Below, piece by piece: positions 29,774-49,031 of a stretch of 64,000 nucleotides of DNA (position 1 is the first letter of the stretch; each line of letters starts with the position of its first letter). The stretch spans positions 138,321 to 202,320 of the forward strand of contig JAEUQT010000002.1 in the NCBI GenBank assembly GCA_016789445.1. Reading direction: 5' to 3'. This DNA is from a bacterium. GTDB lineage: Bacteria; Patescibacteriota; Minisyncoccia; Phycocordibacterales; UBA2100. A program made the translations under genes and the position numbers. The notes beneath the pieces were generated by a model. The model worked only from the letters and a program-made list of their open reading frames with translations. It was not told where the DNA came from and made no database searches.

Positions 29774-31099
29774 ATGAAGTTCTCGCGATTGCTGGTCTTT
29801 TTTGTGCTGCTTGCCCTGCCGCTTTCCGCTTCCGCGGCGCTTACTCCCGAGGAGCGCGCGGAACTCGAGAAGCAGCTCGCCGAAGTCGAGCAGCAGATCG
29901 CGGCCAATAAGACCGAGCTCGAAAAGAAGCAGGGTGAACGCCAATCTCTGGAACGCGATGTGGCGATACTCGATGGACAGATACGCGAGACGCAGCTCGC
30001 GATCAAACAGCGTGACCTTGCCGTCCGCAAGCTCACCGACGGCATCACCGACAAGGAGGCCGCCATCAAGGTGCTCGATGGGAAAGTCGCCGAAGGGCAG
30101 GAGTCGGTGGCGCAGATGATCCGCCGCACGCACGAGATCGACGGCATCTCCATCGCAGAGCTCGCGCTCGGCGGTTCCATCACCGACCTCTTCACCGAGA
30201 TCGACAACTACCAGATCGTGCAGCAGGCGCTTGATGACGCATTCAAGGAGATGGCGATCGCCCGCTCCGATCTCGCGGCACGACGCGAAGCACTGCAGAG
30301 CCAGCAGGAAGAGGAACAATCGATCCTCCAGCTGCAGAAGCTCGAACGTGAGCAGCTCCAGAGATCAGAGCGTGAGAAATCCCAACTCGTTTCGGCGGCG
30401 AAAGGCCAGGAAGCCAATTACCAGAAGATCATCGCCGAGCGTCAGCAGACGGCGACACAGATCCGGGCACGTCTCTTCCAGCTCGCCGATTCCAGCGAGG
30501 TCTCGTTCGGTGTGGCATACGATCTTGCCAAGAAGGCGAGTGAGGCTACCGGTGTCCGTCCCGCGTTCATCCTCGGCATCCTCAAGAACGAGAGCGACCT
30601 CGGCCGCAATGTCGGTCAGTGCCTCCTGACGAACGAACCGGCCAAAGGCAACGGCAAGGGTGCGAATACCGGCACCGCGTTCCCGAAAGTGATGCACCCG
30701 ACACGCGACGTCGATCCCTTCCTGGAGATCACCGCGGAACTCGGCATCGACTGGAAATCGCAGCGCGTGTCGTGTCCGCAATCGGTCGGATACGGCGGCG
30801 CTATGGGTCCATCGCAGTTCATCGCTTCGACGTGGATGATGTACAAGGATCGCATCGCGTCGGCCACCGGCCAGAATCCGCCGAACCCTTGGGACAATCG
30901 GGCCGCATTCACCGCATCCGCGATCTTCCTCTCCGACATCGGCGCGGCGCGTGGCACGCGCGAAGGGGAGCGGGAAGCGGCACTCCGCTACTTCGCCGGC
31001 GGCAACTGGAAGAACCCGGCATTCGCCTCCTACGGCACCCGCGTTCTCGGATTCGCCGATGAGTTCCAGGCCCAGATCGACGTCCTTGAGGGACGTTGA
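29774..31099 (+). CDS. secreted coiled-coil protein with C-terminal MltB-like lytic transglycosylase domain
   Basis: Signal peptide (MKFSRLLVFFVLLALPLSASA). A ~300-aa coiled coil. The C-terminal GAMGPSQFIASTW motif matches the AMGPMQF(I/M)PSTW signature of MltB-type transglycosylases. The track ORF start at 29315 is an in-frame readthrough of the rplY 3' end. Confidence 0.65.
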   Translation: MKFSRLLVFFVLLALPLSASAALTPEERAELEKQLAEVEQQIAANKTELEKKQGERQSLERDVAILDGQIRETQLAIKQRDLAVRKLTDGITDKEAAIKVLDGKVAEGQESVAQMIRRTHEIDGISIAELALGGSITDLFTEIDNYQIVQQALDDAFKEMAIARSDLAARREALQSQQEEEQSILQLQKLEREQLQRSEREKSQLVSAAKGQEANYQKIIAERQQTATQIRARLFQLADSSEVSFGVAYDLAKKASEATGVRPAFILGILKNESDLGRNVGQCLLTNEPAKGNGKGANTGTAFPKVMHPTRDVDPFLEITAELGIDWKSQRVSCPQSVGYGGAMGPSQFIASTWMMYKDRIASATGQNPPNPWDNRAAFTASAIFLSDIGAARGTREGEREAALRYFAGGNWKNPAFASYGTRVLGFADEFQAQIDVLEGR

Positions 31100-31124
31100 G
31101 CACCGCGAGACGTTTCTCAAGGTG

Positions 31125-31222
31125 GAAGGTGAGACGGGGGTGGGGCCCCGTCGCAAGGCCGGACCGGGCGTAGGCGAGGGAGGCGGGGTCGCGCAATTCG
31201 CCAGCAGGCGAATATGCGTGAC
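31125..31222 (+). repeat. conserved intergenic structured element, family 1, copy A
   Basis: GGTGAGACGGGGGTGGGGCCCCGTCGCAAGGCCGGACCGGGCGTAGGCGAGGGAGGCGGGGTCGCGCAA is followed by a bulged hairpin at 31192-31218 (loop AGCAG) and then TGAC. Near-identical blocks occur at 34496 and 48806, with compensatory stem changes. Confidence 0.7.
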
Positions 31223-31235
31223 GGTAGACCCTTCC

Positions 31236-31264
31236 TTGCGGAAACAGTGCGTTTTTTGTATAGT
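31236..31264 (+). promoter_or_regulatory. sigma70-like promoter for rpmE (TTGCGG-17-TATAGT), 8 nt from ATG
   Basis: The -35 box is at 31236-31241 and the -10 box at 31259-31264. A T-run lies just upstream. Confidence 0.45.
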
Positions 31265-31272
31265 ACGCCGAC

Positions 31273-31530
31273 ATGAAAAAGGACCTGCACCCGGATACCT
31301 ATCGCGACGTGATCTTCGAGGATGTCTCCTCGGGGGCTCGTTTTCTCATTGGTTCCACCATCCGCACGGAAAAGACCGACAAATGGGAGGATGGTAAGGA
31401 ATACCCGGTCTTCCAGGTTGAAATCTCCTCTGCATCGCATCCGTTCTACACCGGCCAGTCGAAGACCATCGACACCGCCGGCCGCGTCGAGAAGTTCAAG
31501 GCTCGCGCAGCAAAGACCTCCAAGAAGTAA
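31273..31530 (+). CDS. rpmE: 50S ribosomal protein L31
   Basis: [10 protein letters not shown]...HPFYTGQ. Typical L31. Confidence 0.85.
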
Positions 31531-31587
31531 CGACCCTGCCGAACAAAACCCCGCTACAAGCGGGGTTTGGCGTATACTTATCGCACC

Positions 31588-32580
31588 ATGGCCCAGGAAC
31601 CGATTTTGAACCCCGAAGACTACGCCGATGATCACCGCGTGGCGTTTTTGGTTACCGAATGGAAGCGCCTCCTGCAGGCTGAAAAGGATGCGCAGGAACT
31701 CCTCGAAGTCGATCCCTCGATGAAGGAGCTCGCTGAAAAGGAAGTCGAAGAGATCGACCAGCAGAAAGAGCAGCTGATGAAGCAGATGGTGCAGATCGTG
31801 GGGGACCCGAACGAGCGCGAATGGCCGAATGAGATCGTACTCGAAGTACGCGCCGGTGTCGGCGGTGAAGAAGCATCGCTCTTCGCTGAGGAGCTGGCCT
31901 CCATGTATCTCAAGTATGCGCAGATCAAGGGCTGGAAGACGAAGACCATAGAAGAGAGCCGTGCTGAACTCGGGGGCATCAAGGAGATCCAGGTCGAAGT
32001 GAAGGGTGAAAACGTCTATCGCGAATTGCAGTACGAGACCGGCGTGCATCGCGTGCAGCGCGTGCCGGCGACCGAGAAGCAGGGCCGCATCCACACCTCC
32101 ACCGCATCAGTTGCCATCATGCCGATCTACAAGCGCATCAAGATCCAGATCAATCCCGCGGACATCGAGCGCGAGACATCACGCTCCGGCGGCGCGGGCG
32201 GACAGAACGTCAACAAGGTTGAGACCGCCGTGCGGCTCATCCACAAGCCGACGGGTATCGACGTCCGATGCACCTCGGAACGCTCACAGGCAGCCAATCA
32301 GGAGCGCGCGATGAAGCTCCTTGAATCGAAGCTCCAGCAGCTTCAGGACGAAACGGACGACCGCAAGCGTGCCGCAGACCGCAAATCCCAGGTGGGTACC
32401 GGCGATCGTTCGGAGAAGATCCGTACCTACAACTTCCCGCAGGACCGCATCACCGACCATCGCCTCAAGGAGTCGTGGTCCAATGTCGAAGCCATCATGG
32501 GTGGCCGTTTGGGTCCTATCATGGAAGCCCTTGAAAAGGGGGGTGGCGGGGAAGCTTCAGACGTTGCGGAAGACGAATAA
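31588..32580 (+). CDS. prfA: peptide chain release factor 1
   Basis: GGQ motif ([20 protein letters not shown]). PAT tripeptide ([17 protein letters not shown]), which indicates RF1 rather than RF2. The track start at 31567 is TTG, so ATG 31588 is preferred. TATACT lies 9 nt upstream. Confidence 0.85.
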
Positions 32581-32603
32581 TCCTGCTAGAATCCGCGCCA
32601 CAT

Positions 32604-33308
32604 ATGGTTACTACCTCAGCCGCAGATATGAAGACGCTCTACGACGCAGGGGCGCACGTGGGCTATGCCCGCACCCGCCGCCACCCGACGTCGGCACCGT
32701 ACCTCTACTCGACCAAGGACCGCACCGACATCTTCAATCTCGAGGAGACTGAAAAGCGCCTCTCGACTGCGGCTGAATTCGCTGCATCCCTCGCTCAGGC
32801 AGGCAAGACCCTCCTTTTCGTCGGTGGCAAGCACGAAGCAGCAAGCTCGGTCCGTTCCGGCGCTGAAGCAGCCGGCCTTCCATTCGTCGCTGGTCGCTGG
32901 ATCGGCGGTACCCTCACCAACTTCCGCAACATCCGCAAGCGCATCGACCGCATGGAGAAGCTCATGAAGGATCGCGAATCCGGCGAGCTCGAGAAGTACA
33001 CCAAGAAGGAGCGCCTCATGATCGATCGCGAGATCGAGGAATTGCAGGGCCGCTTCGGTGGCATCACCAATCTCCGCGACCTCCCGGCAGCACTCTTCGT
33101 CGTCGACTCCCGTCACGAGAAGACCGCAGTTCAGGAAGCAAACCAGATGCGCATCCCGGTCATCTCGCTCGCATCCTCCGACTGCGACTTCTCCAAGGTC
33201 CAGTTCCCGATCCCTGCAAACGATACGTCGGTGAAGTCGATCGCACTCATCGTCGATGCGATCGCAGGTGCATATTCCGCAGGGAAGCGCGCTCCCGCGG
33301 CGAAGTAA
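32604..33308 (+). CDS. rpsB: 30S ribosomal protein S2
   Basis: LYDAGAHVGYARTRRHP... Full-length S2 similarity. Confidence 0.85.
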   Translation: MVTTSAADMKTLYDAGAHVGYARTRRHPTSAPYLYSTKDRTDIFNLEETEKRLSTAAEFAASLAQAGKTLLFVGGKHEAASSVRSGAEAAGLPFVAGRWIGGTLTNFRNIRKRIDRMEKLMKDRESGELEKYTKKERLMIDREIEELQGRFGGITNLRDLPAALFVVDSRHEKTAVQEANQMRIPVISLASSDCDFSKVQFPIPANDTSVKSIALIVDAIAGAYSAGKRAPAAK

Positions 33309-33367
33309 CTTCATCCTGCGGGGTGTGGTAAGCTATACATTAAATCGTTTTCCTAAGTCTTTTTGAT

Positions 33368-33949
33368 ATGGCAACTACTGAAGAGATCAAGCAGCTTCGC
33401 GATGCGACCGGTGTCTCGGTCATGCAGTGCAAGAAGGCCCTCGAAGAAGCAGGAGGGGATCTTGAGAAGGCAATCGTCATCCTCCGCAAGATCGCCGCTG
33501 CCGGCGCAGGCAAGAAGGCCGACCGCGAACTCGCTGCAGGTGTCGCCGCAGCGTATACCCACGCCGGCGGTCAGGTCGTCGGCGCTATCGTGCTCGCCTG
33601 CGAGACCGACTTCGTCTCCCGCAATCCGGAATTCCAACAGATCGCGTACGACATCGCGATGCACGTCGCCGCAATGCGTCCTGAATTCATCACGAAGGAG
33701 CAGGTAAAGGAGGAGGATATCGCCAAGGCGCGCGAAGTTTTCACGCAGGAAGCAGCAAGCGTCAAAGAAGAGATGCGTGCGAAGGTGATCGACGGAAAGC
33801 TCGAATCATTCATCAAGGAGAAGGTCCTTCTCGACCAGCCGTTCGTAAAGAACGGGGACATCACCATCCGTCAGCTCATCGAGAGCGGTGTCCAGAAGTT
33901 CGGCGAGAAGATCGAGGTCGTCCGCATGGAACGCCTCGCCGTGAAGTAG
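33368..33949 (+). CDS. tsf: elongation factor Ts (short form)
   Basis: MATTEEIKQLRDATGVSVMQCKKALEEAGGDLEKAI is the UBA-like N-terminus of EF-Ts. Canonical rpsB-tsf gene order. Confidence 0.85.
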   Translation: MATTEEIKQLRDATGVSVMQCKKALEEAGGDLEKAIVILRKIAAAGAGKKADRELAAGVAAAYTHAGGQVVGAIVLACETDFVSRNPEFQQIAYDIAMHVAAMRPEFITKEQVKEEDIAKAREVFTQEAASVKEEMRAKVIDGKLESFIKEKVLLDQPFVKNGDITIRQLIESGVQKFGEKIEVVRMERLAVK

Positions 33950-33953
33950 TTCC

Positions 33954-34352
33954 ATGATGATCGCCGCGCTCAGTGTCCTCGGGTTCTCGATCGTCGGCAT
34001 TCTCCTCTTGTTCGCCATTAAGAAATACGAACTCTCGCGCGGCGTCCTCATCGGCGGCTCGTTCCGTGACGATGCGGATCTCTTCGCGATGCGCGTGAAG
34101 TGGATCTTCCTCGTCATCGAATGGTACCTCTCGCGCTTGCCGGATTTCCTGTTTCTTCTCACGCGCTACGGTATCCGTATCGGTGCACTCTACACGGCAC
34201 GCCTCGCGCGTCGCGCCGAAGCGCAGGCGCACAACGTCGCGGATTTCGTCTCGCATAAGCGTAATTTCGAACGTCGTGAGACGAAGTCCCAGTACCTGAA
34301 GCAGGTCAGCGACAAGAGTGATAACGGGCACGGACCGGTAGCGACAGTCTAG
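33954..34352 (+). CDS. hypothetical membrane protein
   Basis: N-terminal TM helix. No recognisable motif. Confidence 0.4.
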   Translation: MMIAALSVLGFSIVGILLLFAIKKYELSRGVLIGGSFRDDADLFAMRVKWIFLVIEWYLSRLPDFLFLLTRYGIRIGALYTARLARRAEAQAHNVADFVSHKRNFERRETKSQYLKQVSDKSDNGHGPVATV

Positions 34353-34390
34353 CCGGTCGGGTATAGTTCTTTCACCGCGGTGTGTACTAA

Positions 34391-34462
34391 GCCGCCTTAG
34401 CTCAGCGGTAGAGCAACTCTTTTGTAAAGAGAAGGTCCCCGGTTCAAATCCGGGAGGCGGCT
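34391..34462 (+). tRNA. tRNA-Thr (anticodon TGT)
   Basis: Cloverleaf folded by hand. Acceptor GCCGCCT/AGGCGGC. D-stem GCTC/GAGC. Anticodon loop TT-TGT-AA. T-arm CCCGG-TTCAAAT-CCGGG. CCA is not encoded. Confidence 0.8.
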
Positions 34463-34495
34463 CACGAACGAAGTGAGGGAGACGACTCCGGGAGG

Positions 34496-34590
34496 GGTGA
34501 GACGGGGTTGGGGCCCCGTCGCAAGGTCGGACCGAGCGTAGGCGAGGGAGGCGGGGTCGCGCAACATCGCAGCAGCGATGTATGCGTGAC
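34496..34590 (+). repeat. conserved intergenic structured element, family 1, copy B
   Basis: Same ~65-nt core as copy A with 3 substitutions. The hairpin at 34560-34586 has a conserved AGCAG loop and a compensated stem (CATCGC/GCGATG versus TTCGCC/GGCGAA in copy A). A further perfect 10-bp hairpin follows at 34591-34613. Confidence 0.7.
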
Positions 34591-34805
34591 CGGGAAAACA
34601 TGCTGTTTTCCCGTGTCTGAGAGCAGGGTGCCGAGCGAAGCGCAGGCATCCGTTGAGAACCGAGGGTTCTCAAGGTATCCGGGTGGCGGCTCCCGTAACT
34701 TTGTTTCTAGAATCTGCGTCGGTCTCGTTTTTCATATATAAGACTACATCACACATCAATCAGGCCAAAAAACCGTTTGAATGCTATCCTAATCCCTAAG
34801 CCACC

Positions 34806-36422
34806 ATGCTTCCCAAGGAATACTGGTATCTCCACATAGCCCGGGCAACCGATCTCACGGGCACTGATCGGCGCATCTACCGCGCCTTCGAGATCCTTCC
34901 CGCGGTCCTCTCGATCGGTACCTTGGCTGCGTTCGTCGCGCTCTCATTCCTGAAGCCGGTCTGGGCGGCGTATCTCACCATCGTCTTCGCCGCGTACTGG
35001 CTCTTCAAGACGGCCTATCTTTCGATGCACTTGCGCTACAACTTCAAGCGCATCCGCTACAACCTCAGCGTCAACTGGCGTGAGAAGCTCCACGATCTTC
35101 CGCATGTTCCGGCGCGCGCCGAGCCGCATCTGGTACACATGATCCTTCTGCCGTTCTACGACGAACCATACGAAGTCCTGAAGGAATCGATCGACGCGAT
35201 CGCGCATGCGGATTGGGATCCGCAGGGGATCATCATCGTACTTGCCGCAGAAGCCCGCGCAGGGAGCGAACATCATGCGGTCGCTGAGCGCCTGAAAGAG
35301 GAATACCGTGAACGTTTCCTGGATTTCCTCGTTACCATCCATCCGGCCGATCTTCCGGGGGATATCCCGGGCAAGGGATCGAATCTTTCCTATGCTGCCG
35401 AAGAGGCGCGCGTGAAAGTGCTCGATGAGCGCAAGATCCCGTACGAGCATGTGGTCGTCTCCGCATTCGATTCAGACACGGTCGTGTATCCGCAGTATTT
35501 CGCCTGCCTCACGTGGCATGTGCTTTCAGCGGAAGATCCCGAACGCACGTCATTCCAGCCGGTGCCGCTCTACCACAACAACATCTGGGACGCGCCGCTT
35601 ATCTCGCGCGTGATCGCGTATTCCTCTTCGTTCTGGCAGATGATCCAGCAGGAACGTCCGGAGAAACTTGCGACGTTCAGTTCGCACGCGGTCGTTTTCA
35701 AATCACTCTACGAGGCCGGGTACTGGCAGCGCAATGTCGTCTCCGAGGACTCGCGCATCTTCTGGAACATGTTCGCGCGCTACGACGGCGATTATCGCGT
35801 CGTCCCGATGGCGTATCCGGTTTCCATGGATGCGAACGTCGCGCCGTCGTTCTGGGGGACCATGCGCAACATCTACAAGCAGCATCGTCGTTGGACGTAT
35901 GGCGTCGAGAACGTGCCCTACATCCTCTGGATAAGTCTCAAGAACAAGAGGATACCGGCAGGTAAGAAATGGCGCGCGATCGGCGTGCAGGTCGAGGGGT
36001 TCTGGTCGCTCGCGACGCATCCCTTGATCCTCTTCAGCGTCGGTTGGTTGCCGCTTCTGGTCGGCGGTGCGGCTTTCAACGCGACCGTCCTTTCGTATAA
36101 CCTTCCGCTCGTCGCGCGTTCGTTCCTCACGCTCGCGATGTTCGGTCTCATGGTCTCCGCGGCGATCTGTATGTATCTCTTGCCGGAGCGCCCTGCGCAC
36201 GTGCCCCGTCATCGCAATTTCTTCATGGTGCTGCAGTGGATCCTCGTGCCGATGACGATGGTGGTCTTCAGCTCGATCCCCGGCCTCGAATCGCAGATCC
36301 GTCTCGCGATCGGCCGCTACCTCGGTTTCTGGGTGACGCCGAAGGCGCGCGCGGGAGCAGTCGAAGCGGAGCCGCTCGCGGAAGTCACCACCTCCTCCGT
36401 CGAAGAGGGAAAGAAGGATTAG
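34806..36422 (+). CDS. family-2 processive beta-glycosyltransferase (cellulose/chitin/hyaluronan synthase-like), integral membrane
   Basis: D, D, D and QxxRW signature. DSD at ..SAFDSDTVVYP.. and QHRRW at ..YKQHRRWTYG... Multiple TM helices at both ends. Confidence 0.7.
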   Translation: MLPKEYWYLHIARATDLTGTDRRIYRAFEILPAVLSIGTLAAFVALSFLKPVWAAYLTIVFAAYWLFKTAYLSMHLRYNFKRIRYNLSVNWREKLHDLPHVPARAEPHLVHMILLPFYDEPYEVLKESIDAIAHADWDPQGIIIVLAAEARAGSEHHAVAERLKEEYRERFLDFLVTIHPADLPGDIPGKGSNLSYAAEEARVKVLDERKIPYEHVVVSAFDSDTVVYPQYFACLTWHVLSAEDPERTSFQPVPLYHNNIWDAPLISRVIAYSSSFWQMIQQERPEKLATFSSHAVVFKSLYEAGYWQRNVVSEDSRIFWNMFARYDGDYRVVPMAYPVSMDANVAPSFWGTMRNIYKQHRRWTYGVENVPYILWISLKNKRIPAGKKWRAIGVQVEGFWSLATHPLILFSVGWLPLLVGGAAFNATVLSYNLPLVARSFLTLAMFGLMVSAAICMYLLPERPAHVPRHRNFFMVLQWILVPMTMVVFSSIPGLESQIRLAIGRYLGFWVTPKARAGAVEAEPLAEVTTSSVEEGKKD

Positions 36423-36431
36423 AATATCTGT

Positions 36432-37265
36432 ATGGAACCGTTTCCGGCCTATCGCAGGCGCATCTATTTCGCACTCTTCGTGGTCCTTTTCCTCGTCCTT
36501 CTGCCGGCGATCATCCTCTATGCTGACGGTTGGCGATTCAAACAGGGATTCGGCTTCGTGCGCACCGGTGGTGTCTATGTCTCCGTGCCGTATTCCGACG
36601 CGACCGTGACGCTCAATGGCGAAGTGGTGGGGCATAGCGGATTCCTCCAGCGCGAGTTCTACATCGGCGATCTCGCTCCTGCAGCATATTCGCTGCGCAT
36701 CGAAGCGCCTGATCGCCGCACCTGGAGCCGTCTTCTCGTCGTCGAGCCGCAGCTCGTGACCGATGCGCGCGCGGTCCTTCTACCGGATGACATTACGCTT
36801 TCGCGCCTCATCATCTCGGGTTCGGCGACCAGCACGAAGACTGTTTCTCGTACGACGTATGACGGCTATCTCGCGGCTTTCGCCACCACCACCCGTGCGA
36901 TCGCATCTTCCACGGTTCCCGTCGATGAGCAGGACGGCATTTCGCTCTTTATCATTGATGGTGATGTCGTCGCGCGCTGGATGCGCAACGAGCGCAAGCC
37001 GTCGGCATTCTGCGGAAGCCCGTCGCTCTGCGAAGAGGAGATGTCGGTGAAGCGCATCGGTGGAGACGCGACGGATGCGTACTTCTATCGCGGCGGCGTA
37101 GTGTATCGCACCGAAGAGGGCGGCATCTATTTCGCAGAGATCGATATCCGTCCGACACCGATGGCAGCGCAGCTCTATGCGGCAACAGGGGCTGATATGC
37201 GCCTCCTCGACGATACGCTCGTCATCAAGTCGGGAGACATGCTTTACGAAGTGGAGGGTTTGTAG
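36432..37265 (+). CDS. hypothetical membrane-anchored protein (possible PEGA-like beta-sandwich), likely partner of upstream GT2
   Basis: N-terminal TM helix. Translationally coupled, 9 nt after the GT2 stop. The PEGA assignment is weak. Confidence 0.4.
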   Translation: MEPFPAYRRRIYFALFVVLFLVLLPAIILYADGWRFKQGFGFVRTGGVYVSVPYSDATVTLNGEVVGHSGFLQREFYIGDLAPAAYSLRIEAPDRRTWSRLLVVEPQLVTDARAVLLPDDITLSRLIISGSATSTKTVSRTTYDGYLAAFATTTRAIASSTVPVDEQDGISLFIIDGDVVARWMRNERKPSAFCGSPSLCEEEMSVKRIGGDATDAYFYRGGVVYRTEEGGIYFAEIDIRPTPMAAQLYAATGADMRLLDDTLVIKSGDMLYEVEGL

Positions 37266-37269
37266 CCGA

Positions 37270-37378
37270 GGTGGATGCGGAAAATGCTTCTCTCGGGTAA
37301 ACCCGTCTTCCCAGCTGGGAAAACGGGCTGATCCTCGCCAGCTGCGGGGCCCCTCGCGAAGCATTTTCCGCATCCACC
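37270..37378 (+). repeat. conserved intergenic structured element, family 2, copy D
   Basis: A perfect 21-bp stem (GGTGGATGCGGAAAATGCTTC / GAAGCATTTTCCGCATCCACC) clamps a 67-nt core. The core is ~90% identical to the core at 55532-55600. Confidence 0.75.
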
Positions 37379-37418
37379 CGGTGTTGGTGGGGAGGTTAGG
37401 AAAGGCTATACTCCCACC

Positions 37419-38150
37419 ATGCAGCGGGGCCACATCCACCCAATTTCGAGCCTCATTCGCGAGGCCAACGCCATCTTCAGTAAGATGGGCTTTGCGTTCG
37501 CCGAAGGACCTCTCGTTGAGGACGAGTGGCACAATTTCGATGCCTTGAACGTCCCGAAGGATCATCCGGCCCGCGACATGCAGGACACCTTCTTCCTCAA
37601 AGATGAGAAGGAGACCGTGCTCCGTACGCACACCTCGCCGGTCCAGATCCGCTATATGAAATCGCAGATGGAGAAAGGGATCCTTCCTCCGTATCGCGTC
37701 ATCGCGCCGGGCAAAGTCTTCCGCAACGAAGCCACCGACATGACGCATGAGGCGGAATTCTTCCAGATCGAAGGGTTTGCCGTCGGTGAAGACATCACAC
37801 TCGCCAACCTCAAAGGCACGCTCGAAAGATTCTTCAAGGAACTCTTCAAGGGCGCTTCGGTTGAGATCCGTTTCCGTCCGAGCTTCTTCCCGTTCACCGA
37901 ACCATCGGTGGAAGTCGATATGCGACTCGTAGGTGAAGGCGTGCCGGAGAAACTCAAAGACCGATGGATCGAGATGATGGGTGCAGGCATGATCCATCCG
38001 AATGTCCTGAAAAACGCGGGCATCGATCCGGCAAAGTATCGTGGTTTCGCATTCGGTATGGGATTAGACCGTCTCGCCTTGCTGCGTTGGGGCATCGACG
38101 ACGTGCGCCACATGCACTCGGCAGACCTCCGGTTTATCAACCAGTTCTAG
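37419..38150 (+). CDS. pheS: phenylalanine--tRNA ligase alpha subunit (short, core-only form)
   Basis: Class II motifs (FRPSFFPFTEPS, GAGMIHPNVL). 243 aa with no N-terminal extension. Confidence 0.85.
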   Translation: MQRGHIHPISSLIREANAIFSKMGFAFAEGPLVEDEWHNFDALNVPKDHPARDMQDTFFLKDEKETVLRTHTSPVQIRYMKSQMEKGILPPYRVIAPGKVFRNEATDMTHEAEFFQIEGFAVGEDITLANLKGTLERFFKELFKGASVEIRFRPSFFPFTEPSVEVDMRLVGEGVPEKLKDRWIEMMGAGMIHPNVLKNAGIDPAKYRGFAFGMGLDRLALLRWGIDDVRHMHSADLRFINQF

Positions 38151-38151
38151 T

Positions 38152-39939
38152 ATGAAAATCTCACGCGACTGGCTCCAGAAATATTTCCATGCACCTTTGC
38201 CATCGGCGCAGGAATTGGCTGACGCCCTCACGTTCCATGCGTTCGAGATCGAGAGCGTCGAAGGCGACATGCTCGATGTGAAGATCACCGCGAATCGCGG
38301 ACACGATTGCCTCTCGTATCGCGGCATCGCGAAGGAGATCTCAGCGATCCTGAAGCTTCCGCTTGCAAGCGATCCCTTGAAAGAAGAGGTGAGGCTCGAG
38401 CCGGTCACCGATGCCGTTTCGGTTCTCATAGAAGATATCGAACTCTCGCCGCGCTACATCGCCGCTGTCATGAAGGGAGTGAAAGTGGGCCCATCGCCGG
38501 AGTGGTTGGTGAAGCGTCTCGAAGCGATGGGGCAGAAAAGCATCAACAACGTCGTCGATGCGACGAATTTCGTCATGTTCAATATCGGTCAGCCGCTCCA
38601 TGCATTCGATGCGGGCAAGTTGAAGCAAAAGGAGGGGAAATTCGCAATCGAAGTGCGCAAAGCCGTCGCGGGTGAAAAACTTCACGCGCTCGATGAGAAG
38701 GAATACGCTCTCAAGCCGGGCATGTTGGTCATTGCTGATAAGAACGCCGGAACCCCTATCGGCATCGCGGGTGTGAAGGGCGGCTCTCCCGCCGGTATCA
38801 CGGAATCGACGACGGACATCATCATCGAAAGCGCGAATTTCAACGGTGCATCAGTCCGGAAGACCGCAAAGCGTCTTAATCTCCGTACCGATGCCTCACA
38901 GCGCTTCGAGCAGGTCCTCTCTCCAGAACTCGCTGCATTCGGTATGCGCGCCGCAGCGGATCTCATCCATAAGCTCGCCGGTGGAGAGATCGTCGGCTAC
39001 GCCGACGCGTATGCGAAGCCGCATGTCCCGATTCCGGTCTCGTTGCCAGCCGATCTTCCCACGAAAGTTCTCGGGATAGAAATAACCAAGGAGAAGATCC
39101 GTGACGCATTCACTCGTCTTGGGTTTATGTTCGAGGAGAAGGAAGACCTGTTCGTCGTGACGCCGCCGTTCGAACGACGGGATCTCGTGATTCCGGAAGA
39201 TCTTATCGAAGAGATCGTCCGTATCGAAGGGTTCGATACGATCCCTGCGCTCGAACTCCCCGAGGCTACGGCGCCGGAAGTGAATCAGAATTTCTATGCG
39301 AGCGAATGGGTGCGCGAGCACCTCGTCTCCGAGGGGTATTCCGAAGTCTTCACGTCGGTTTTCGCTGATAAAGGGGAGCGCGGAGTACTGAATAAAGTCG
39401 ATAGCGTGCGCCCGAAGCTCCGCTCGACGCTCGTCGATGGTTTGAACGACGCGCTGAAGAAGAACGTCCAGAACAAGGACCTTCTCGGTCTCAAGGAGGT
39501 GAAGCTCTTCGAGATCGGCACGGTCTGGAAGGACGGCAAGGAAACCGTGATGGCGGGAATCGTGACTGAGAAAGAAAAAGCGAAGGAAGATCCACTCAGT
39601 GTTTTCCTGAAAGAAGCCTCTTCATACGACGTGCTTCCGCTTTCCGCTACGGAACGCTACCAGCCGTACTCGCGCTACCCGTCCATCACCCGCGATATCG
39701 CGATGTGGGTACCTGCGGAGACTTCTGCGACGGATGTCGAATCCACGCTCAAGGAGCATGCGGGGAAGCTGTGTGTCCGCATCGGGCTCTTTGATGAGTT
39801 CAAGAAAGAAAACCAGATCTCCTATGCGTTCAGATTGGTCTTCCAATCCGATGAAAAGACCCTCACTGACGACGAGGTGATGGGCTTCATGCAGGCAGTC
39901 TACGACGTAGTTGACAAGAAGGGCTGGAAAGTGCGTTAA
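38152..39939 (+). CDS. pheT: phenylalanine--tRNA ligase beta subunit (short form)
   Basis: The MKISRDWLQKYF N-terminus and B3/4 and B5 domain similarity. 595 aa, against ~800 aa typical, so it probably lacks the N-terminal tRNA-binding domain. Confidence 0.8.
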   Translation: MKISRDWLQKYFHAPLPSAQELADALTFHAFEIESVEGDMLDVKITANRGHDCLSYRGIAKEISAILKLPLASDPLKEEVRLEPVTDAVSVLIEDIELSPRYIAAVMKGVKVGPSPEWLVKRLEAMGQKSINNVVDATNFVMFNIGQPLHAFDAGKLKQKEGKFAIEVRKAVAGEKLHALDEKEYALKPGMLVIADKNAGTPIGIAGVKGGSPAGITESTTDIIIESANFNGASVRKTAKRLNLRTDASQRFEQVLSPELAAFGMRAAADLIHKLAGGEIVGYADAYAKPHVPIPVSLPADLPTKVLGIEITKEKIRDAFTRLGFMFEEKEDLFVVTPPFERRDLVIPEDLIEEIVRIEGFDTIPALELPEATAPEVNQNFYASEWVREHLVSEGYSEVFTSVFADKGERGVLNKVDSVRPKLRSTLVDGLNDALKKNVQNKDLLGLKEVKLFEIGTVWKDGKETVMAGIVTEKEKAKEDPLSVFLKEASSYDVLPLSATERYQPYSRYPSITRDIAMWVPAETSATDVESTLKEHAGKLCVRIGLFDEFKKENQISYAFRLVFQSDEKTLTDDEVMGFMQAVYDVVDKKGWKVR

Positions 39940-40017
39940 ATTGGCTCTGTTGAGCCGTTAAAGCGGGGATAACTGGTTAGGAAACCGGTCAGGAATTTGG
40001 TATAATTTCCGTAACCT

Positions 40018-42039
40018 ATGGCTGAAAAGAAAAGCTCCTACGGAGCCGCTGATATTACTGTCTTGGAAGGTCTGGAAGCGGTCCGTCGCCGACCGGGTAT
40101 GTACATCGGTACGACCGGTCTCGACGGCCTCCACCACCTCATCTGGGAGATTTTCGACAACTCACGCGACGAAGCGATGGGTGGATTCGCCAATGATATC
40201 GAAGTCGCGCTCCTTCCCGACAATGTCATCCGTGTCGTGGACAACGGCCGCGGTATTCCGGTCGATATCCATCCGAAGACGAAGGTCTCCGCGCTCGATA
40301 CCATCATGACCACGCTCCATGCAGGCGGTAAGTTCGGCGGTGAAGGATACAAGGTGTCCGGCGGTCTCCACGGTGTCGGCGCATCGGTGGTGAACGCGCT
40401 TTCGACCTATGCACGCGTGGAAGTCCACCGTGAGGGCGGACAGCACGTCCAGGAATACAAGAACGGTGGTAAGGCGGTGGGTAAGGTGAAGAAGATCGGC
40501 AGCTCGAAGCGCACCGGTACCATCACGCTTTTCCGTGCCGATCCTTCGATCTTCCCGGTCATCGAATACAGCTATGATCGCATCGTCGGTCACTTGCGCC
40601 AGCAGGCGTATCTCGTGAAGGGTCTGCGCATCACGATACTCGATTTGCGCGATAAGAAGGAAGTCGATCATGAGTCGGCGTACTACCTACGCGAGCTCGG
40701 TCTCGATGCGCCATCCACCACCTTCTACTTCGAAGGAGGTCTCAAGTCGCTGGTCTCATTCCAGAATCGTCACCAGACGGCAGTCCACAAGAATGTCTTC
40801 TATGTCGAGAAAGAGCAGGATGATGTGAACGTGGAAGTCTCGCTCCAGTATGTGGACGATATCTCCTCGCGCATCACCGCATTCGCGAACAATATCTATA
40901 ACGCGGAAGGCGGTACGCACATCACCGGTTTCAAGACCGCACTCACGCGAACCCTGAACAACGCTTCGAAGGGCGGCGGAGGTAAGGAAGGTGAATCGTT
41001 CACGGGCGACGATGTCTTGGAAGGTCTCACGGCCGTGGTCTCGGTGAAGCTCCGCGAGATCCAGTTCGAAGGCCAGACCAAGGGCAAGCTCGGTTCCGTC
41101 GAGGCACGTGGTGCGACCGAAACCGTTTTCGCGGAAGCATTCGCGCAGTTCTTGGAAGAGCATCCGGACGACATGCGTGCCATCCTCGGCAAGGCGACGC
41201 TCGCGATGAAGGCACGTAAGGCTGCTAAGGCCGCGAAGGAATCCGTGCTGCGTAAAGGTGCGCTCGAAGGCCTCTCGCTCCCGGGCAAGCTTGCCGACTG
41301 TCAGGTGCGCAATCCTGAAGAAGCAGAACTCTTCGTCGTCGAGGGAGATTCGGCAGGTGGTACGGCCAAGATGGGTCGTGATCGCCGCACACAGGCCATC
41401 CTCCCGCTCCGCGGCAAGATCCTCAACGTCGAACGCGCGCGTCTCGATAAGATGCTCGTCTCCGAACAGATCCGCAATCTCGTGATCGCGCTCGGTACGG
41501 CGATCGGAGATGTCTTCGATGTCTCGAAGCTCCGCTACCACAAGCTCATCATCGCGACCGATGCAGACGTCGACGGCGCGCACATCCGCACGCTGCTCCT
41601 CACGCTCCTGTATCGTCATTTCCGTCCGGTCGTCGATGGCGGCTTCCTCTATATCGCCCAGCCGCCGCTCTACAAGATCAAGAAAGGGAAGGAGGTTTTC
41701 TATGCATACACCGAGGAGGAGAAGATCGACATCGCCGGCAAGGATGCGCAGCTCGAGACGGAAGACGAGGTCGTAGAAGAAGGCGAAGAAGAAGCGCCTG
41801 AGGTAAAGGCGAAACGTGCAACGAAGATCTCCGTCCAGCGCTACAAGGGTCTCGGCGAGATGAATGCGGAGGAATTGTGGGAGACCACGATGGATCCGGC
41901 TCGTCGTGTCTTGAAGCTCGTCACCATCGAGGATGCCACCGATGCCGACCGCACCTTCGATATCCTCATGGGTACCGACGTCCCGTCACGCAAGACTTTT
42001 ATCCAGTCGCACGCCAAGGAAGCGACGTTGGACATCTAG
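40018..42039 (+). CDS. gyrB: DNA gyrase subunit B
   Basis: GHKL ATPase motifs (LHHLIWEIFDNSRDEA, GLHGVGASVVNALS). Toprim (EGDSAGG). C-terminal ..KTFIQSHAKEATLDI. TATAAT 11 nt upstream. Confidence 0.85.
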   Translation: MAEKKSSYGAADITVLEGLEAVRRRPGMYIGTTGLDGLHHLIWEIFDNSRDEAMGGFANDIEVALLPDNVIRVVDNGRGIPVDIHPKTKVSALDTIMTTLHAGGKFGGEGYKVSGGLHGVGASVVNALSTYARVEVHREGGQHVQEYKNGGKAVGKVKKIGSSKRTGTITLFRADPSIFPVIEYSYDRIVGHLRQQAYLVKGLRITILDLRDKKEVDHESAYYLRELGLDAPSTTFYFEGGLKSLVSFQNRHQTAVHKNVFYVEKEQDDVNVEVSLQYVDDISSRITAFANNIYNAEGGTHITGFKTALTRTLNNASKGGGGKEGESFTGDDVLEGLTAVVSVKLREIQFEGQTKGKLGSVEARGATETVFAEAFAQFLEEHPDDMRAILGKATLAMKARKAAKAAKESVLRKGALEGLSLPGKLADCQVRNPEEAELFVVEGDSAGGTAKMGRDRRTQAILPLRGKILNVERARLDKMLVSEQIRNLVIALGTAIGDVFDVSKLRYHKLIIATDADVDGAHIRTLLLTLLYRHFRPVVDGGFLYIAQPPLYKIKKGKEVFYAYTEEEKIDIAGKDAQLETEDEVVEEGEEEAPEVKAKRATKISVQRYKGLGEMNAEELWETTMDPARRVLKLVTIEDATDADRTFDILMGTDVPSRKTFIQSHAKEATLDI

Positions 42040-42059
42040 GCACGGTATAATTCCTTCTC

Positions 42060-44227: not shown

Positions 44228-44293
44228 AGTGTCCGAGGTATACCACGAATACTGTCGTTTGACAATACCTCGTTTGTGGGGCAGAATATTTGA

Positions 44294-44578
44294 GTGAATC
44301 CCGTTAGAGATGACGGTAGTTGGTATACGTACGTGCTCCGTAGTCTAAGAGATGGAGAAACATACACCGGCTTCACCAACGATTTGCGGAAGCGCTTCAA
44401 GCAGCATAACGACGGGCTCACGTCTTCAACCAAGGGACGTCGTCCCTTTGAGCTGATATATTACGAAATGTGTAGAAACGAGAGTGACGCACGGTCGAGA
44501 GAATTATTTCTAAAATCTGGCATGGGTAAACGCTATTTGCGAAATCGCTTGAAGCGCTTCCTATCTCTAACGGGATGA
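44294..44578 (+). CDS. small GIY-YIG nuclease-family protein (YhbQ/UPF0213-like)
   Basis: WYTYVLRS..GETYTGFTNDLRKRFKQHN...G..R.FELIYYE. GTG start inside the left TIR. The TGA stop overlaps the sortase ATG (ATGA). Confidence 0.7.
   Translation: MNPVRDDGSWYTYVLRSLRDGETYTGFTNDLRKRFKQHNDGLTSSTKGRRPFELIYYEMCRNESDARSRELFLKSGMGKRYLRNRLKRFLSLTG
44298..44576 (+). mobile_element. TIR-bounded GIY-YIG mini-element (candidate autonomous copy)
   Basis: A perfect 14-bp inverted repeat, ATCCCGTTAGAGAT (44298-44311) and ATCTCTAACGGGAT (44563-44576), exactly brackets a 94-aa GIY-YIG ORF. Related TIR pairs without an ORF occur at 61114/61219 and 63872/63941. Confidence 0.55.
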
Positions 44579-46427: not shown

Positions 46428-46430
46428 CTA

Positions 46431-46961: not shown

Positions 46962-46967
46962 GCAAAA

Positions 46968-47497: not shown

Positions 47498-48805
47498 ATG
47501 AACTCGACTTCAACGCGTTCGCAGATCGTTCTCGGTCTTCTCGTTGGTTTCGTTGTGTTCGCAGGTCCGTCTGCGGTCCAGGCTGCCGATCTTGGTGGCT
47601 GGGGCTGGAGCGATTACGGTTCCTACGACAGTTGGTCTGATTACGGCTCGTACGATACGTGGAGCGACTATGGTTCGTATGATACCTGGTCTGATTACGG
47701 TTCTTACGACACGTGGTCTGACTACGGTTCGTATGGCTCCGGCACGTACTACGACGACGGGTATTACTACGACGATGTAGCTGGTACGTACTATGACGAT
47801 GTCTATGGTACTTACTACGACGATTCGTACGGCACCTATTACGATGATTCGTACGGTTCATACTACGATGACTCGTATTACTACGGTGGTGGTTCCTACG
47901 ACTACGGTTGTGGTTCCTCGTGCGGCGGCTCGTGGTACACGCCTTCGTACTCGACTGGTTGCGGTTCGTGGTGCGGCACCGGCGGCGGACAGTATGTCAC
48001 CCCCCGCTTCACGGCTCCGAGCTCTTCGTACACGAACATCGTGACGAACAATGTCGACAACTCGCAGGACAACGACAACTACAACTACATCACGAACATC
48101 GACAACTCGATCCGTGACAGCTTCAACAACTACAATAGCGGCAACACCTCTATCGTAGTCACTGCTCCTCAGACGCCGGTTCACACGACTCCTGCTCCGT
48201 ACTGCACGATCACGCATGCACAGTACGGTGGCTATGGTTCGGGTGCGTATCTCTCGTGGACTTCCACGAACGCATCGAGCGCATACCTCTCGAACGTCGG
48301 TTCTGTCGCAGTCTCGGGTTCCCAGACCGTCTACGCGCATGGCTCGCAGACGTACACGCTCACGGTCTACGGTTACAACGGTCAGACGGCAACGTGCGCA
48401 ACCTCGGTCTACGGCCAGGTCTACGTTCCTCCGACCTATAACCCTCCGTACGTGTCCCTTACGCAGATCCCGTACACTGGTTTCGACTTCGGTCCTATCG
48501 GTAACGCGATGTACTGGGTCTCGCTTCTTGGATTCGCAGCAGCAGGTGCCTACCTCATGATCTACTATCGTGGTGGTGCGCTTGCCTTCGCAACCGCAAT
48601 GGTTCCGGCACGTAAGTTCGCTCCGGTCGTTGCTCCGAAGGCTCCGATCCTCGTTGAGCGTGAAGCACTTGCGCTCTCGCACGATGAAGTGAAGGTCCAG
48701 CCGATCGTTGCATCTCTTCGCAAGGCAGCCGGTACTCTCGATACGATGGCAATCGTTTCCTCGAAAGATGGTTCGATGCCGCGCATCGTGATCCAGCGTG
48801 CTTAA
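47498..48805 (+). CDS. secreted Tyr/Asp-rich tandem-repeat surface protein with C-terminal IPYTG + TM segment
   Basis: Signal peptide. Five 27-nt SDYGSYDTW repeats and YYDDSYG(T/S) repeats (47611-47900). Beta-rich domain shared with the 49032 product. LTQIPYTGFD, then a hydrophobic helix, then YYRGG, then an ~80-aa tail. Confidence 0.65.
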   Translation: MNSTSTRSQIVLGLLVGFVVFAGPSAVQAADLGGWGWSDYGSYDSWSDYGSYDTWSDYGSYDTWSDYGSYDTWSDYGSYGSGTYYDDGYYYDDVAGTYYDDVYGTYYDDSYGTYYDDSYGSYYDDSYYYGGGSYDYGCGSSCGGSWYTPSYSTGCGSWCGTGGGQYVTPRFTAPSSSYTNIVTNNVDNSQDNDNYNYITNIDNSIRDSFNNYNSGNTSIVVTAPQTPVHTTPAPYCTITHAQYGGYGSGAYLSWTSTNASSAYLSNVGSVAVSGSQTVYAHGSQTYTLTVYGYNGQTATCATSVYGQVYVPPTYNPPYVSLTQIPYTGFDFGPIGNAMYWVSLLGFAAAGAYLMIYYRGGALAFATAMVPARKFAPVVAPKAPILVEREALALSHDEVKVQPIVASLRKAAGTLDTMAIVSSKDGSMPRIVIQRA

Positions 48806-48893
48806 ACGGGGGTGGGCCCCGTTTAAGAGCCGGACTGAGCGAAGGCGAAGGAGGCGGGGTCGCGCAATTTGCCAGCAGGCAAATATGGGTGAC
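48806..48893 (+). repeat. conserved intergenic structured element, family 1, copy C
   Basis: GGGGGTGGGCCCCG...GGAGGCGGGGTCGCGCAA, then a hairpin at 48863-48889 (TTTGCC/GGCAAA, AGCAG loop), then TGAC. More diverged than copies A and B. Confidence 0.6.
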
Positions 48894-49031
48894 TAAGGAG
48901 AGTGCTAAGGAAGGACGGGCAAAGCTCCAAAAGTGAACCGCATGGCCCGTCGCGAATAGCGATGGGCCATGCTGGTAGAGGGGAGGGAAATGTACTATAA
49001 AGCTGATACGTTAACCGATTACTAAATCTAT

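Follow-up and report, generated by a model that had tools for sequence, protein, structure and literature searches.

Three short repeats lie within 20 kb of one another on a 64,000-nt stretch of a Patescibacteriota contig (JAEUQT010000002.1; this whole stretch is referred to as the window), raising the question of what kind of element they represent: a structured RNA, a repeat of the REP type or a mobile sequence. The first-pass annotation described a conserved ~65-nt intergenic block followed by a hairpin with compensatory changes, and proposed a candidate novel structured RNA or a REP-like element. This observation was confirmed. Three co-linear copies, named A, B and C, are found on the + strand at 31128-31222, 34496-34590 and 48799-48893, and a repeat search placed them in one family (D14). 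GGAGGCGGGGTCGCGCAA is exact in all three, whereas 0 of 100 shuffles reach three matches even with three mismatches allowed. A covariance-model scan of the window with filters off finds only these three copies. The features of the three sites are as follows, where labels beginning with L or P denote the other loci compared here.

31084..31122 (+), hairpin 5' of copy A: the last codons plus stop of the upstream ORF (CCTTGAGGGACGT) pair with ACGTTTCTCAAGG; this stretch is part of the DNA missing from the empty allele, and its 3' part resembles the hairpin of the second element at 34653-34673.
31128..31157 (+), 5' module of copy A: GGTGAG, hairpin P1 (GACGGGG/CCCCGTC) and CGCAAG; the same module heads other family members in L068 and L106.
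31158..31222 (+), core of copy A: P2 (31158-31184; GCC-GGA-CC..GG-GA-GGC), the GGGG linker and P3 (31188-31222), a bulged hairpin with an AGCA loop, ending GTGAC.
34391..34463 (+), tRNA-Thr(TGT), identified by ARAGORN and Rfam, the gene next to which copy B and older elements accumulated.
34487..34495 (+), partial direct copy (TCCGGGAGG) of the tRNA-Thr 3' part, inside a decayed inverted copy region; in L147 the inverted copy is a perfect 18-mer.
34496..34590 (+), copy B: 5' module 34496-34525 and core 34526-34590, nested inside an older related element.
34591..34677 (+), second, related element ("member 2"): hairpin CGGGAAAACA/TGTTTTCCCG, a P2-like GGGTGCCGAGCGAAGCGCAGGCATCC and hairpin TTGAGAACC-GAG-GGTTCTCAA; conserved in L147 and partly in L007.
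34678..34693 (+), direct repeat of the tRNA-Thr 3' part (TCCGGGTGGCGGCTCC versus TCCGGGAGGCGGCTCA), with a further decayed copy at 34711-34730.
48799..48893 (+), copy C: hairpin P1 (48801-48827) is built from the ORF end and includes stop TAA 48803-48805, and the core is 48829-48893; conserved in a 94.6%-identical strain, L137.
48902..48919 (+), possible displaced copy of the upstream ORF's end (GTGCTAAGGAAGGACGGG versus GTGCTTAAACGGGG), weakly supported by sequence comparison only.

Most details of the earlier description hold. Copies A and B differ at 3 positions outside the hairpin tip, and the three stem variants are TTCGCC/GGCGAA, CATCGC/GCGATG and TTTGCC/GGCAAA, around an AGCA loop. Copy A ends 50 nt before the rpmE ATG, just 5' of a TTGCGG-17-TATAGT promoter-like site, while copy B starts 33 nt after tRNA-Thr. 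However, some points required correction. The tail is TATG(C/G)GTGAC, always with TATG and not T(A/G)TG. Copy C is not purely intergenic, as its first hairpin includes the stop codon of the upstream ORF. The hairpin is also longer than described, as GGTCGCGCAA pairs with TATGCGTGACC, giving a 15-16 bp bulged helix, P3. Finally, the proposed CCCCG/CGGGG pairing across the core is not supported, because CCCCG pairs locally with the upstream ACGGGG to form P1, and P1 covaries (in 9 of 9 pairs across the family) or is absent in other genomes, while GGCGGGG stays invariant.

When the 18-mer was used as a probe, more than 50 distinct copies were found. Of the 99 stretches matching it in one genome per species, all 23 loci confirmed as real by the covariance model are in CPR MAGs, whereas the other matches, in Streptomyces and similar genomes, do not fit the model; 30 further metagenome loci were then found. 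The copies come from Saccharibacteria, Kaiserbacteria, Paceibacteria, Taylorbacteria and Parcubacteria assemblies. Regarding other collections, the only Rfam 15 hit in the window at the gathering threshold is tRNA-Thr, and no hit was obtained on 31050-31300 even at E<=10. The 18-mer has no match in IMG/VR, and blastn with distant settings found none in phage and plasmid collections. Looser patterns in IMG/VR gave six hits in a phage coding region with no hairpin and no covariance-model match, plus 120 hits to GCCGGAC..GGAGGCGGGG that looked like GC-rich noise. A literature search returned no paper describing such an element in Patescibacteria/CPR and no searchable paper printing the sequence; a paper on group I tRNA introns concerns anticodon-loop introns. 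The family is apparently undescribed.

The conserved unit is a ~65-nt core, GCCGGAC...GGAGGCGGGGTCGCGCAA-hairpin-TATGNGTGAC, which folds on one strand only, often preceded by the 30-nt module GGTGAG-P1-CGCAAG. P2 has GA-rich internal loops, while P3 has a near-invariant 8-bp base including a G·U pair and a tip that is free to change but always stays perfectly paired. The fold is strongly supported: across 49 distinct copies, 97.3% of cells are paired, 22 of 32 pairs change on both sides, 0 of 500 shuffles reach the observed values and slid controls give about 40% pairing. An independent MAFFT/RNAalifold run recovers P2 and P3. Regarding strand specificity, G·U is present at one P3 pair in 48 of 49 copies, and the neighbouring pair is GC in 30 and GU in 14. 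It should be considered that every copy was found with the exact 18-mer, or with a pattern that includes it, so the apparent invariance of that stretch is partly ascertainment. A similarity of the P3 base to Xer/dif arms is no more than a lead.

Comparison of alleles indicates that the element is also a mobile insertion. The site upstream of rpmE is empty in L100 and L105 and filled in the window and L101, the left flank being 100% identical over 2942 nt, and contigs L102-L104 break inside the core. The tRNA-Thr/GT2 spacer is only 35 nt in L149, holds one element in L147, that element plus the nested copy B in the window, and a different arrangement in L146; L147 lacks the 91-nt insert corresponding to copy B, and GTGA is present at both junctions. 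Nested members also occur in L068 and L106, and three identical 136-nt units are found in one Saccharibacteria MAG, one of them without a full X (the end of the target sequence) on its left. Moreover, one copy is an antisense, in-frame, 34-codon insertion in miaA; a protein search with the translated antisense element found no candidates for other in-frame insertions.

Concerning the targets, 27 of 55 distinct copies have a same-strand tRNA or tmRNA within 260 nt upstream, and rplL ends and the GH1 5' end are recurrent sites. The usual layout is target end X, hairpin, inverted copy X', core and second direct copy X. Exact direct repeats of 12-21 nt occur in 13 of 55 copies and start at T-loop C56, right after GTGAC, as seen in L029, L072, L111, L120, L127, L128, L121, L004, L073 and L084. 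In protein genes, L112 repeats the C-terminal peptide TTIEEVLRVITE with its stop and L126 repeats KVELK with its stop, every difference in both being synonymous. The GH1 N-terminus is also duplicated, and the nearest empty orthologues carry the left-copy type. X' matches each tRNA's own T-loop: GGAATCGAA, GGATTCGAA, GACTTGAA or GGATTTGAA. In addition, the core AUG is in frame with GH1 in L001, L008, L074, L145 and P0120 (5 of 6 loci), through a 9-nt linker in the three where it was measured.

No enzyme was found to be linked to the element. All-against-all clustering of neighbouring ORFs revealed only housekeeping synteny (smpB-tmRNA, rplJ/rplL and the GH1 operon), and a PHROGs search of 150 ORFs, all but three of them within 3 kb of 45 loci, showed no integration or transposition family, and no integrase or transposase family recurs among them. 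Two longer intervals between repeats (L039 and L044) have no Pfam recombinase. P1 and P3 are followed by CGCAAG and CGA/CGG rather than T runs, and none of the element hairpins is among the 32 terminator-like sites in the scan of 30900-49100, so they do not fit an intrinsic terminator.

Taken together, the first-pass interpretation is partly supported. The conserved, structured and covarying element is real, but the core-spanning helix is wrong, and the condition named beforehand as pointing to a MITE instead, many copies with target-site duplications, is largely fulfilled by dozens of copies, presence/absence polymorphism, nested and tandem copies and duplicated target ends. It is therefore a mobile repeat with a selected single-strand fold, be it RNA or single-stranded DNA, and not a single-locus regulatory RNA; nor is it REP-like in the strict sense or a classical MITE. 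The element ends (GGTGAG.. or GCCGGAC.. versus ..TATGCGTGAC) are not inverted repeats, and the inverted repeats in the flanks are copies of the local target, differing from site to site. Likewise, the flanking direct repeats have no fixed length, ranging from about 4 nt (GTGA at copy B) to 21 nt (tRNA) and about 40 nt (gene ends, diverged at synonymous sites in protein genes).

The explanation preferred here, held with moderate confidence, is a small, ORF-less, non-autonomous mobile element family confined to Patescibacteria/CPR. Its anatomy, its presence or absence between near-identical strains, its nesting and tandem arrays, its accumulation immediately 3' of tRNA and tmRNA genes (with the junction in the T-loop) and at the ends of protein genes, and the usual layout were established by the analysis, whereas the mechanism is inferred from architecture only, as no recombinase, transposase or reverse transcriptase was found and no free circular or hairpin form has been seen. 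In this view, the unit (100-240 nt: hairpin/terminator, X', core, X) would move as a tiny circular or hairpin-shaped intermediate carrying a copy of its own attachment site, entering by a single crossover, or by a polymerase template switch (copy choice), within or at the edge of X. This would be Campbell-type integration, as in tRNA-targeting islands or e14 in icd, leaving the host gene intact and duplicating its end. In the tRNA type, X'/X would form a stem reproducing the target duplex, with the core as its structured loop, a folded single-strand attachment site analogous to CTX-phage attP or integron attC. The near-invariant core would be the cis site recognised by a conserved, unidentified trans-acting host or helper machine. 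The element also carries GGAGG and an AUG, which appear to restart translation of a downstream gene when it lands in a gene's 5' end. However, copies with the 5' hairpin module often lack X' (GH1, L112), so the idea that the stem mimics the target does not cover the whole family. The X'/X mismatches show no wobble bias (A·C 13 versus G·T 6), and that stem is therefore not demonstrably selected and may be a by-product. Small hairpins including the tRNA 3' end exist even at the empty site of L149, so part of X' may be a host feature. As for which X copy is carried, the GH1 data and L072 favour the right one, while the copy A allele comparison can be read either way. Moreover, near-invariance of ~60 nt across very distant CPR classes is more than a recombination site usually needs and may point to an RNA function.

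Such a function is the basis of the least doubtful alternative, although still an unlikely one: a host-beneficial cis-acting RNA cassette, transcribed with the upstream tRNA, tmRNA or mRNA as a 3'-end processing, stability or termination signal or as a translation-restart cassette, spread by duplication because it is useful, the flanking repeats being by-products of recombination. Almost all copies are co-oriented with the upstream gene and sit right after stable-RNA or highly expressed genes, the G·U pairs fit RNA, GGAGG and the in-frame AUG are conserved, and extreme conservation is typical of RNAs bound by a conserved protein. Nevertheless, the element is dispensable, as near-identical strains lack copy A and an orthologous tRNA-Thr spacer is empty; antisense copies exist inside miaA and in a terminator loop between minus-strand genes; nested and decayed copies pile up; the hairpins are missing from the terminator scan; and the six P3 tip pairs show 0-1 one-sided (G·U-type) changes each against roughly 90 double changes in total, which is unusual for RNA-level evolution. 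A miniature derivative of a single-strand DNA transposon of the IS200/IS605 or another HUH-enzyme type, cut and pasted as folded single-stranded DNA at the replication fork into hairpin loops, with the flanking palindromes as pre-existing target hairpins, is about as improbable. The strand-specific fold with subterminal hairpins, the copies at the apex of long inverted repeats (L124) and at T-loops, a preferred G-rich left flank GG(G)GTG for copies with the 5' module, GTGA at both junctions of copy B and the perfectly palindromic hairpin tips would agree with it, as would the sense strand being the lagging-strand template if the neighbouring genes are co-oriented with replication, which is an inference. 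On the other hand, P1 and P3 do not resemble each other as the two ends of IS200/IS605 elements do, that family makes no target duplication whereas 12-40-nt direct repeats of the target are common here, no TnpA or TnpB gene was seen near copies, and the palindrome made of tRNA 3' ends is not a natural host hairpin.

An RNA-mediated element, with the core as a ribozyme or intron-like RNA (minimal group-II-like or a new self-cleaving class) copied back into DNA by a reverse transcriptase and X' acting like a primer-binding site, is also unlikely. It is suggested by the 5' GTGAG start, the bulged P3 of domain-V-like size with a conserved G·U, insertion after hairpins, twintron-like nesting, the complementarity of X' to tRNA 3' ends and the right X copy carrying CCA in L004 and L128 although the gene does not encode it. 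However, no group II or ribozyme family was matched in Rfam even at E<=10, joining the flanks at the element's ends does not restore the GH1 reading frame, the miaA copy is antisense and translated through, X' in L147 matches the genomic trailer (TCA) and not the mature CCA end, and no reverse transcriptase was seen near any copy. A published survey found no group II introns in Patescibacteria (PMC13011429). HDV-like, hammerhead and twister topologies did not fit when compared by eye, without a formal test, and a diversity-generating retroelement was rejected for the duplicated gene ends because the differences are not adenine-specific. Least likely of all are scars of larger integrative elements, the core being only the conserved att-proximal end of CPR prophages or islands that integrate into tRNA/tmRNA T-loops, left behind after deletion. 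Direct repeats of tRNA/tmRNA 3' parts starting in the T-loop and synonymous-recoded gene ends are the classic signature of integrase-mediated islands, but the distance from the target gene to the core is only 20-250 nt in more than 50 copies, no integrase is nearby, the IMG/VR, phage and plasmid searches gave no match, identical 136-nt units are repeated within one genome, and copies lie inside a coding gene and inside each other.

Comparing with described systems, tRNA/tmRNA-targeting integrative islands and the integration of e14 and phage 21 into icd share the duplicated target end, the T-loop junction, the intact host gene, copies differing only at synonymous sites in protein-gene targets and the piling up of successive insertions. 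Meanwhile, the present unit is 100-240 nt with no integrase or any ORF, its direct repeats being 100-250 nt apart without kilobases of cargo; it carries an additional inverted copy of the target and an ultra-conserved structured core, and also lands in hairpin loops, coding DNA and other copies. Integron attC and CTX-phage attP(+) have a strand-specific fold with a stem of inverted repeats and a structured apical region, which would explain why an inverted copy of the target sits beside the core. In attC, however, the stem base (R box, GTTRRRY) is conserved and the apex varies, whereas here the apex (core) is conserved and the stem is target-derived; no R''/R' boxes (RYYYAAC/GTTRRRY) occur at the ends of any copy, the neighbours are housekeeping genes, and there is no intI, dif-like target or cassette array. 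REP/BIME elements, Rickettsia palindromic elements (RPE) and bacterial MITEs are the subject of reviews (PMC10969869, PMC2229807). They are likewise short, ORF-less, structured repeats in intergenic DNA, some co-transcribed, and RPEs also insert in frame into genes and into tmRNA. Those families are restricted to a genus or family and recognised by short termini, while this one keeps ~60 nt nearly invariant across CPR classes, without terminal inverted repeats of its own or a fixed short target duplication. REP/BIME in particular are 20-40-nt imperfect palindromes in both orientations, clustered, with a RAYT transposase in the genome; here the core is 65 nt with two different helices plus an optional third, nearly all copies have one orientation relative to neighbouring genes, and no transposase-like family recurs near copies. 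Finally, bacterial class C group II introns and euglenoid group III introns/twintrons share insertion just after hairpins or terminators, same-strand bias, a 5' GTGAG-like start, a 3' bulged hairpin and nesting, but this element is far too small, with no domain I-IV and no Rfam match, its removal does not restore reading frames, and one copy is antisense within a gene.

A bolder possibility, compatible with the data but tentative, is a new class of mobile genetic element: an ORF-less, ~100-200-nt unit carrying both a sense and an antisense copy of its own target, whose ~65-nt core, nearly invariant across the CPR radiation, would be an active nucleic-acid fold, either a ribozyme or a folded single-strand site that hijacks a universal host enzyme, directing site-specific integration next to tRNA, tmRNA and gene ends. 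It would be, in effect, a self-addressed mini-integrating element in the smallest bacterial genomes.

CPR/Patescibacteria have tiny, streamlined genomes in which few mobile elements have been described, and this family is abundant (3 copies in 64 kb here), spans several CPR classes and breaks metagenome assemblies. Its conserved folded core, flanked by direct and inverted copies of the target with no enzyme gene attached, does not fit REP, MITE, attC, intron or island definitions. A covariance model of the family would improve the annotation of CPR MAGs and explain many contig breaks, and the element could provide a marker for strain-level dynamics in uncultivated bacteria. It repeatedly remodels the DNA next to tRNA, tmRNA, rplL and other genes, can sit in frame inside proteins and, as inferred from sequence, may supply start codons, and the machine that recognises the core could represent a new recombination or RNA-processing activity.

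The repeats are present at the three places where the first-pass annotation had put them, and its observation is confirmed:
31128-31222, + strand, copy A
34496-34590, + strand, copy B
48799-48893, + strand, copy C
The 18-mer GGAGGCGGGGTCGCGCAA is exact in all three copies, and no dinucleotide-preserving shuffle gave three matches, even with three mismatches allowed. A covariance model run with filters off found no further copy in the window. Each copy folds in prediction into three hairpins, with z-scores of -4.3 to -5.6 against shuffles. The first of them, P1, is GACGGGG/CCCCGTC in copies A and B, while in copy C it is CTTAAACGGGG/CCCCGTTTAAG and includes the stop codon of the upstream ORF, a 435-codon reading frame that also contains, at 47606-47740, four to five tandem 27-nt repeats encoding WSDYGSYDT. 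P2 is formed by GCC-GGA-CC ... GG-GA-GGC, and P3 by GGTCGCGCAA, a tip hairpin with an AGCA loop, then TATGCGTGACC. The + strand fold is more stable than its complement because of G·U pairs. The hairpin described in the first-pass annotation corresponds to the tip of P3, whereas the CCCCG/CGGGG helix that it proposed across the core is not supported, because CCCCG belongs to P1.

Regarding its distribution, no Rfam match was obtained at the gathering threshold or at E<=10. A scan of one genome per species with the 18-mer returned 99 stretches, of which a covariance model built from the three window copies accepted only those from Patescibacteria/CPR MAGs (Saccharibacteria, Kaiserbacteria, Paceibacteria, Taylorbacteria and Parcubacteria), rejecting the chance hits in GC-rich genomes such as Streptomyces. 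A metagenome scan added 30 loci, giving altogether 55 distinct copies, while nothing was found in IMG/VR, in GenBank phages or in plasmids, and no searchable paper prints the sequence or describes such an element. The window itself carries ordinary housekeeping genes (fructose-bisphosphate aldolase, rpmE, prfA, rpsB, tsf and a GT2 glycosyltransferase), besides one 3565-codon ORF at 81-10778 built from many long internal repeats of 72-300 nt, at 60-82% identity. Its nearest relatives are groundwater and metagenome contigs, and the more distant GT2 homologues are annotated as Kaiserbacteria and Paceibacterota.

As seen in the alignments, the constant part of the family is the ~65-nt core, GCCGGAC(Y) - variable P2 top - (R)GGAGGCGGGGTCGCGCAA - variable P3 tip - TATGNGTGAC, where the P2 top comes in short (GAGCGNAGGCGA) and long (..ATGTGAGCGAAGCGAAC..) versions. 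The 5' module GGTGAG-P1-CGCAAG is optional, and it also heads other, related cores (copy 2 of L068, and L106; L numbers designate the loci and contigs outside the window). Across 49 distinct copies, 97.3% of the cells form standard pairs and 22 of 32 pairs show a change on both sides, values reached by 0 of 500 shuffles, whereas sliding the partners by 1-3 columns gives about 40% pairing. An alignment made independently of the model recovers P2 and P3. All copies were retrieved with the 18-mer or a pattern containing it, and the invariance of that stretch is therefore partly ascertainment, but the invariance of GCCGGAC and TATGNGTGAC is not. One P3 pair is G·U in 48 of 49 copies and its neighbour alternates between G-C and G-U, and the fold therefore belongs to this strand only. 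Moreover, the six tip pairs of P3 show only 0-1 one-sided changes each, against about 90 double changes in total, so that the tip is kept as a perfect palindrome, which is not how RNA helices usually drift.

The element is a mobile insertion. Among the contigs that encode an identical L31 protein, there are two (L100 and L105) in which the stop of the upstream gene is followed within 4 nt by the rpmE promoter, while the window and the contig L101 have 146 extra nt holding copy A; three other contigs end inside the element. Left of the site the alleles are 100% identical over 2942 nt, and right of it they are 91-95% identical. Between both regions, the last five codons of the upstream gene (IDVLEGR*) differ at five synonymous positions between the filled and the empty allele (window 31084-31099 versus L100 2943-2959), so a recombination breakpoint lies exactly at the element. 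In addition, a hairpin just 5' of copy A, GTTGAGCACCG..TTCTCAAGG (window 31095-31122), resembles the 3' hairpin of a second, related element, here called member 2, so the 146-nt insert may be a composite of two elements.

Member 2 is made of a hairpin, a P2-like GAGCGAAGCG motif and a TTGAGAACC-GAG-GGTTCTCAA hairpin, and it is found at window 34591-34677, L147 70-205 and L007 3930-3985. The spacer between tRNA-Thr and the GT2 gene, where it occurs in the window, measures 35 nt in the contig L149 and 249 nt in L147, which holds member 2 alone between a perfect 18-nt inverted copy and a direct copy of the tRNA 3' end. In the window the spacer reaches 342 nt and holds the same member 2 with copy B nested in it and GTGA at both junctions, while the arrangement is different again in L146, whose GT2 protein is 95% identical. 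Downstream of the tRNA-Thr gene of the window there are three progressively decayed copies of its 3' part, suggesting repeated rounds of insertion at this tRNA:
34487-34495, decayed copy of the tRNA-Thr 3' part
34678-34693, decayed copy of the tRNA-Thr 3' part
34711-34730, decayed copy of the tRNA-Thr 3' part

Further arrangements were seen in other genomes. One Saccharibacteria MAG has three 100%-identical 136-nt units at two tRNA-Ser genes, one of the three units having only CGCCA, not a full tRNA end, on its left, and members of the family also nest inside each other. In L115 a copy lies antisense inside miaA and reads through as 34 codons without a stop, and in L124 a copy sits at the apex of a ~30-nt inverted repeat between two minus-strand genes. 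Downstream of a tmRNA gene in L057, another module (GCTTTTCC..GGAAAAGC ACCCGCGCCCGTAGGGCGAG), at 1515-1590 and 1730-1805, sits in the same 'GGGAATCGAAAG ... ATTCC' T-loop palindrome context and alternates with the core element.

Of the 55 distinct copies, 27 have a same-strand tRNA or tmRNA within 260 nt upstream, and several more sit next to truncated or undetected ones. The ends of rplL (L007, L060, L068/L129, L126) and the 5' end of a GH1 beta-glucosidase gene (L001, L008, L069, L074, L145) are also recurrent sites. The typical layout consists of X (the end of the host gene), a hairpin or terminator, X' (an inverted copy of X), the core, and X again. For tRNAs, the second X starts at T-loop C56 immediately after GTGAC and runs to the 3' end, being 12-21 nt exact in 13 copies, whereas X' ends 2-3 nt before GCCGGAC and matches the T-loop of the particular tRNA (GGAATCGAA, GGATTCGAA, GACTTGAA or GGATTTGAA). 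In L004 and L128, just 3' of the core, the displaced copy of the tRNA/tmRNA 3' end carries CCA (CC in L127), although the neighbouring gene does not encode CCA. The 3' strand of the tRNA acceptor stem is regularly the 5' arm of the hairpin that follows the gene (L149 1460-1480, L072 2535-2580, L111 and L029), even at the empty tRNA-Thr site, so it may be a general CPR way of ending tRNA transcripts.

For protein genes, the two X copies encode the same peptide with different codons, as in L112 (TTIEEVLRVITE*), L126 (KVELK*) and the FPxGFxWG region of GH1. Such pairs cannot arise by in-place duplication followed by decay, since both copies must have spent time as working gene ends, and this is the signature of an element that carries a copy of its attachment site from a previous host, as e14 and phage 21 do in icd and as tRNA islands do. 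Regarding GH1, the nearest empty orthologues have the left-copy type of N-terminus (MAEK..FP..), which suggests that the right copy travels with the element, and the L072 unit points the same way. No integrase, transposase or reverse-transcriptase family recurs among 150 neighbouring ORFs.

The analysis itself establishes a structured, strand-specific, ORF-less unit that inserts, nests, forms tandems and duplicates the target end, whereas the way in which it moves is an inference. In the most likely mechanism, the unit would move as a tiny circle or hairpin and enter by one crossover or template switch at X, inserting hairpin-X'-core-X after the resident X and leaving the host gene intact. However, no enzyme and no free form have been found, many copies with the 5' module lack X', the X'/X mismatches show no wobble bias, and small hairpins involving the tRNA 3' end exist even at empty sites. 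A folded single strand in which X'/X forms a duplex copy of the target, capped by the core, would explain the otherwise odd inverted copy, and it has precedents in CTX-phage attP and integron attC. In this view, the core would be the cis site for a conserved trans-acting machine.

The core also carries GGAGG and an AUG that is in frame with GH1 in five of six loci, through a 9-nt linker in the three that were measured, and in copy A the short ORF that starts at this AUG ends in an ATGA overlap with rpmE. This suggests, without showing it, that the element may restart translation when it lands in a 5' end. Promoter-like -10 boxes (TATAGT, TAGAAT, TATAAT) lie only 6-8 nt before the ATG at window 31236-31275 and upstream of GH1 in L001, L008, L069, L074 and L142, and many genes in these organisms may be leaderless.

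Other explanations account for part of these data. A beneficial cis-RNA, acting as a 3'-end or translation cassette, fits the orientation and the conservation, but not the dispensability, the antisense and in-gene copies or the piles of decayed copies. The GTGAG start, the bulged P3, the nesting and the tRNA-complementary X' would suit an intron-like or ribozyme retroelement, although this reading fails against Rfam, the reading-frame test and the antisense miaA copy. Strand specificity and hairpin targets fit a derivative of an IS200/IS605-type single-strand transposon, while the long target duplications and the dissimilar end hairpins do not. That the copies are scars of larger islands is contradicted by the unit size, by the identical short units and by the absence from the viral and plasmid collections.

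When compared with described systems, the family lacks the defining features tested for Rfam families, for MITEs, for REP/BIME, for group II introns, for attC and for intrinsic terminators, and of integrative islands it shows only the duplicated tRNA 3' end. It works most like a miniature, enzyme-less integrative element with a folded attachment site, and is placed among the small non-autonomous mobile elements; that it represents a new class whose core is an active fold is possible but considered unlikely. The interpretation of the first-pass annotation, a candidate structured RNA or REP-like element with a covarying hairpin, is supported only in part. No prior description of the element was found, and it is more than a three-copy repeat, being a CPR-restricted, structured, site-seeking mini-element seen across several CPR classes.
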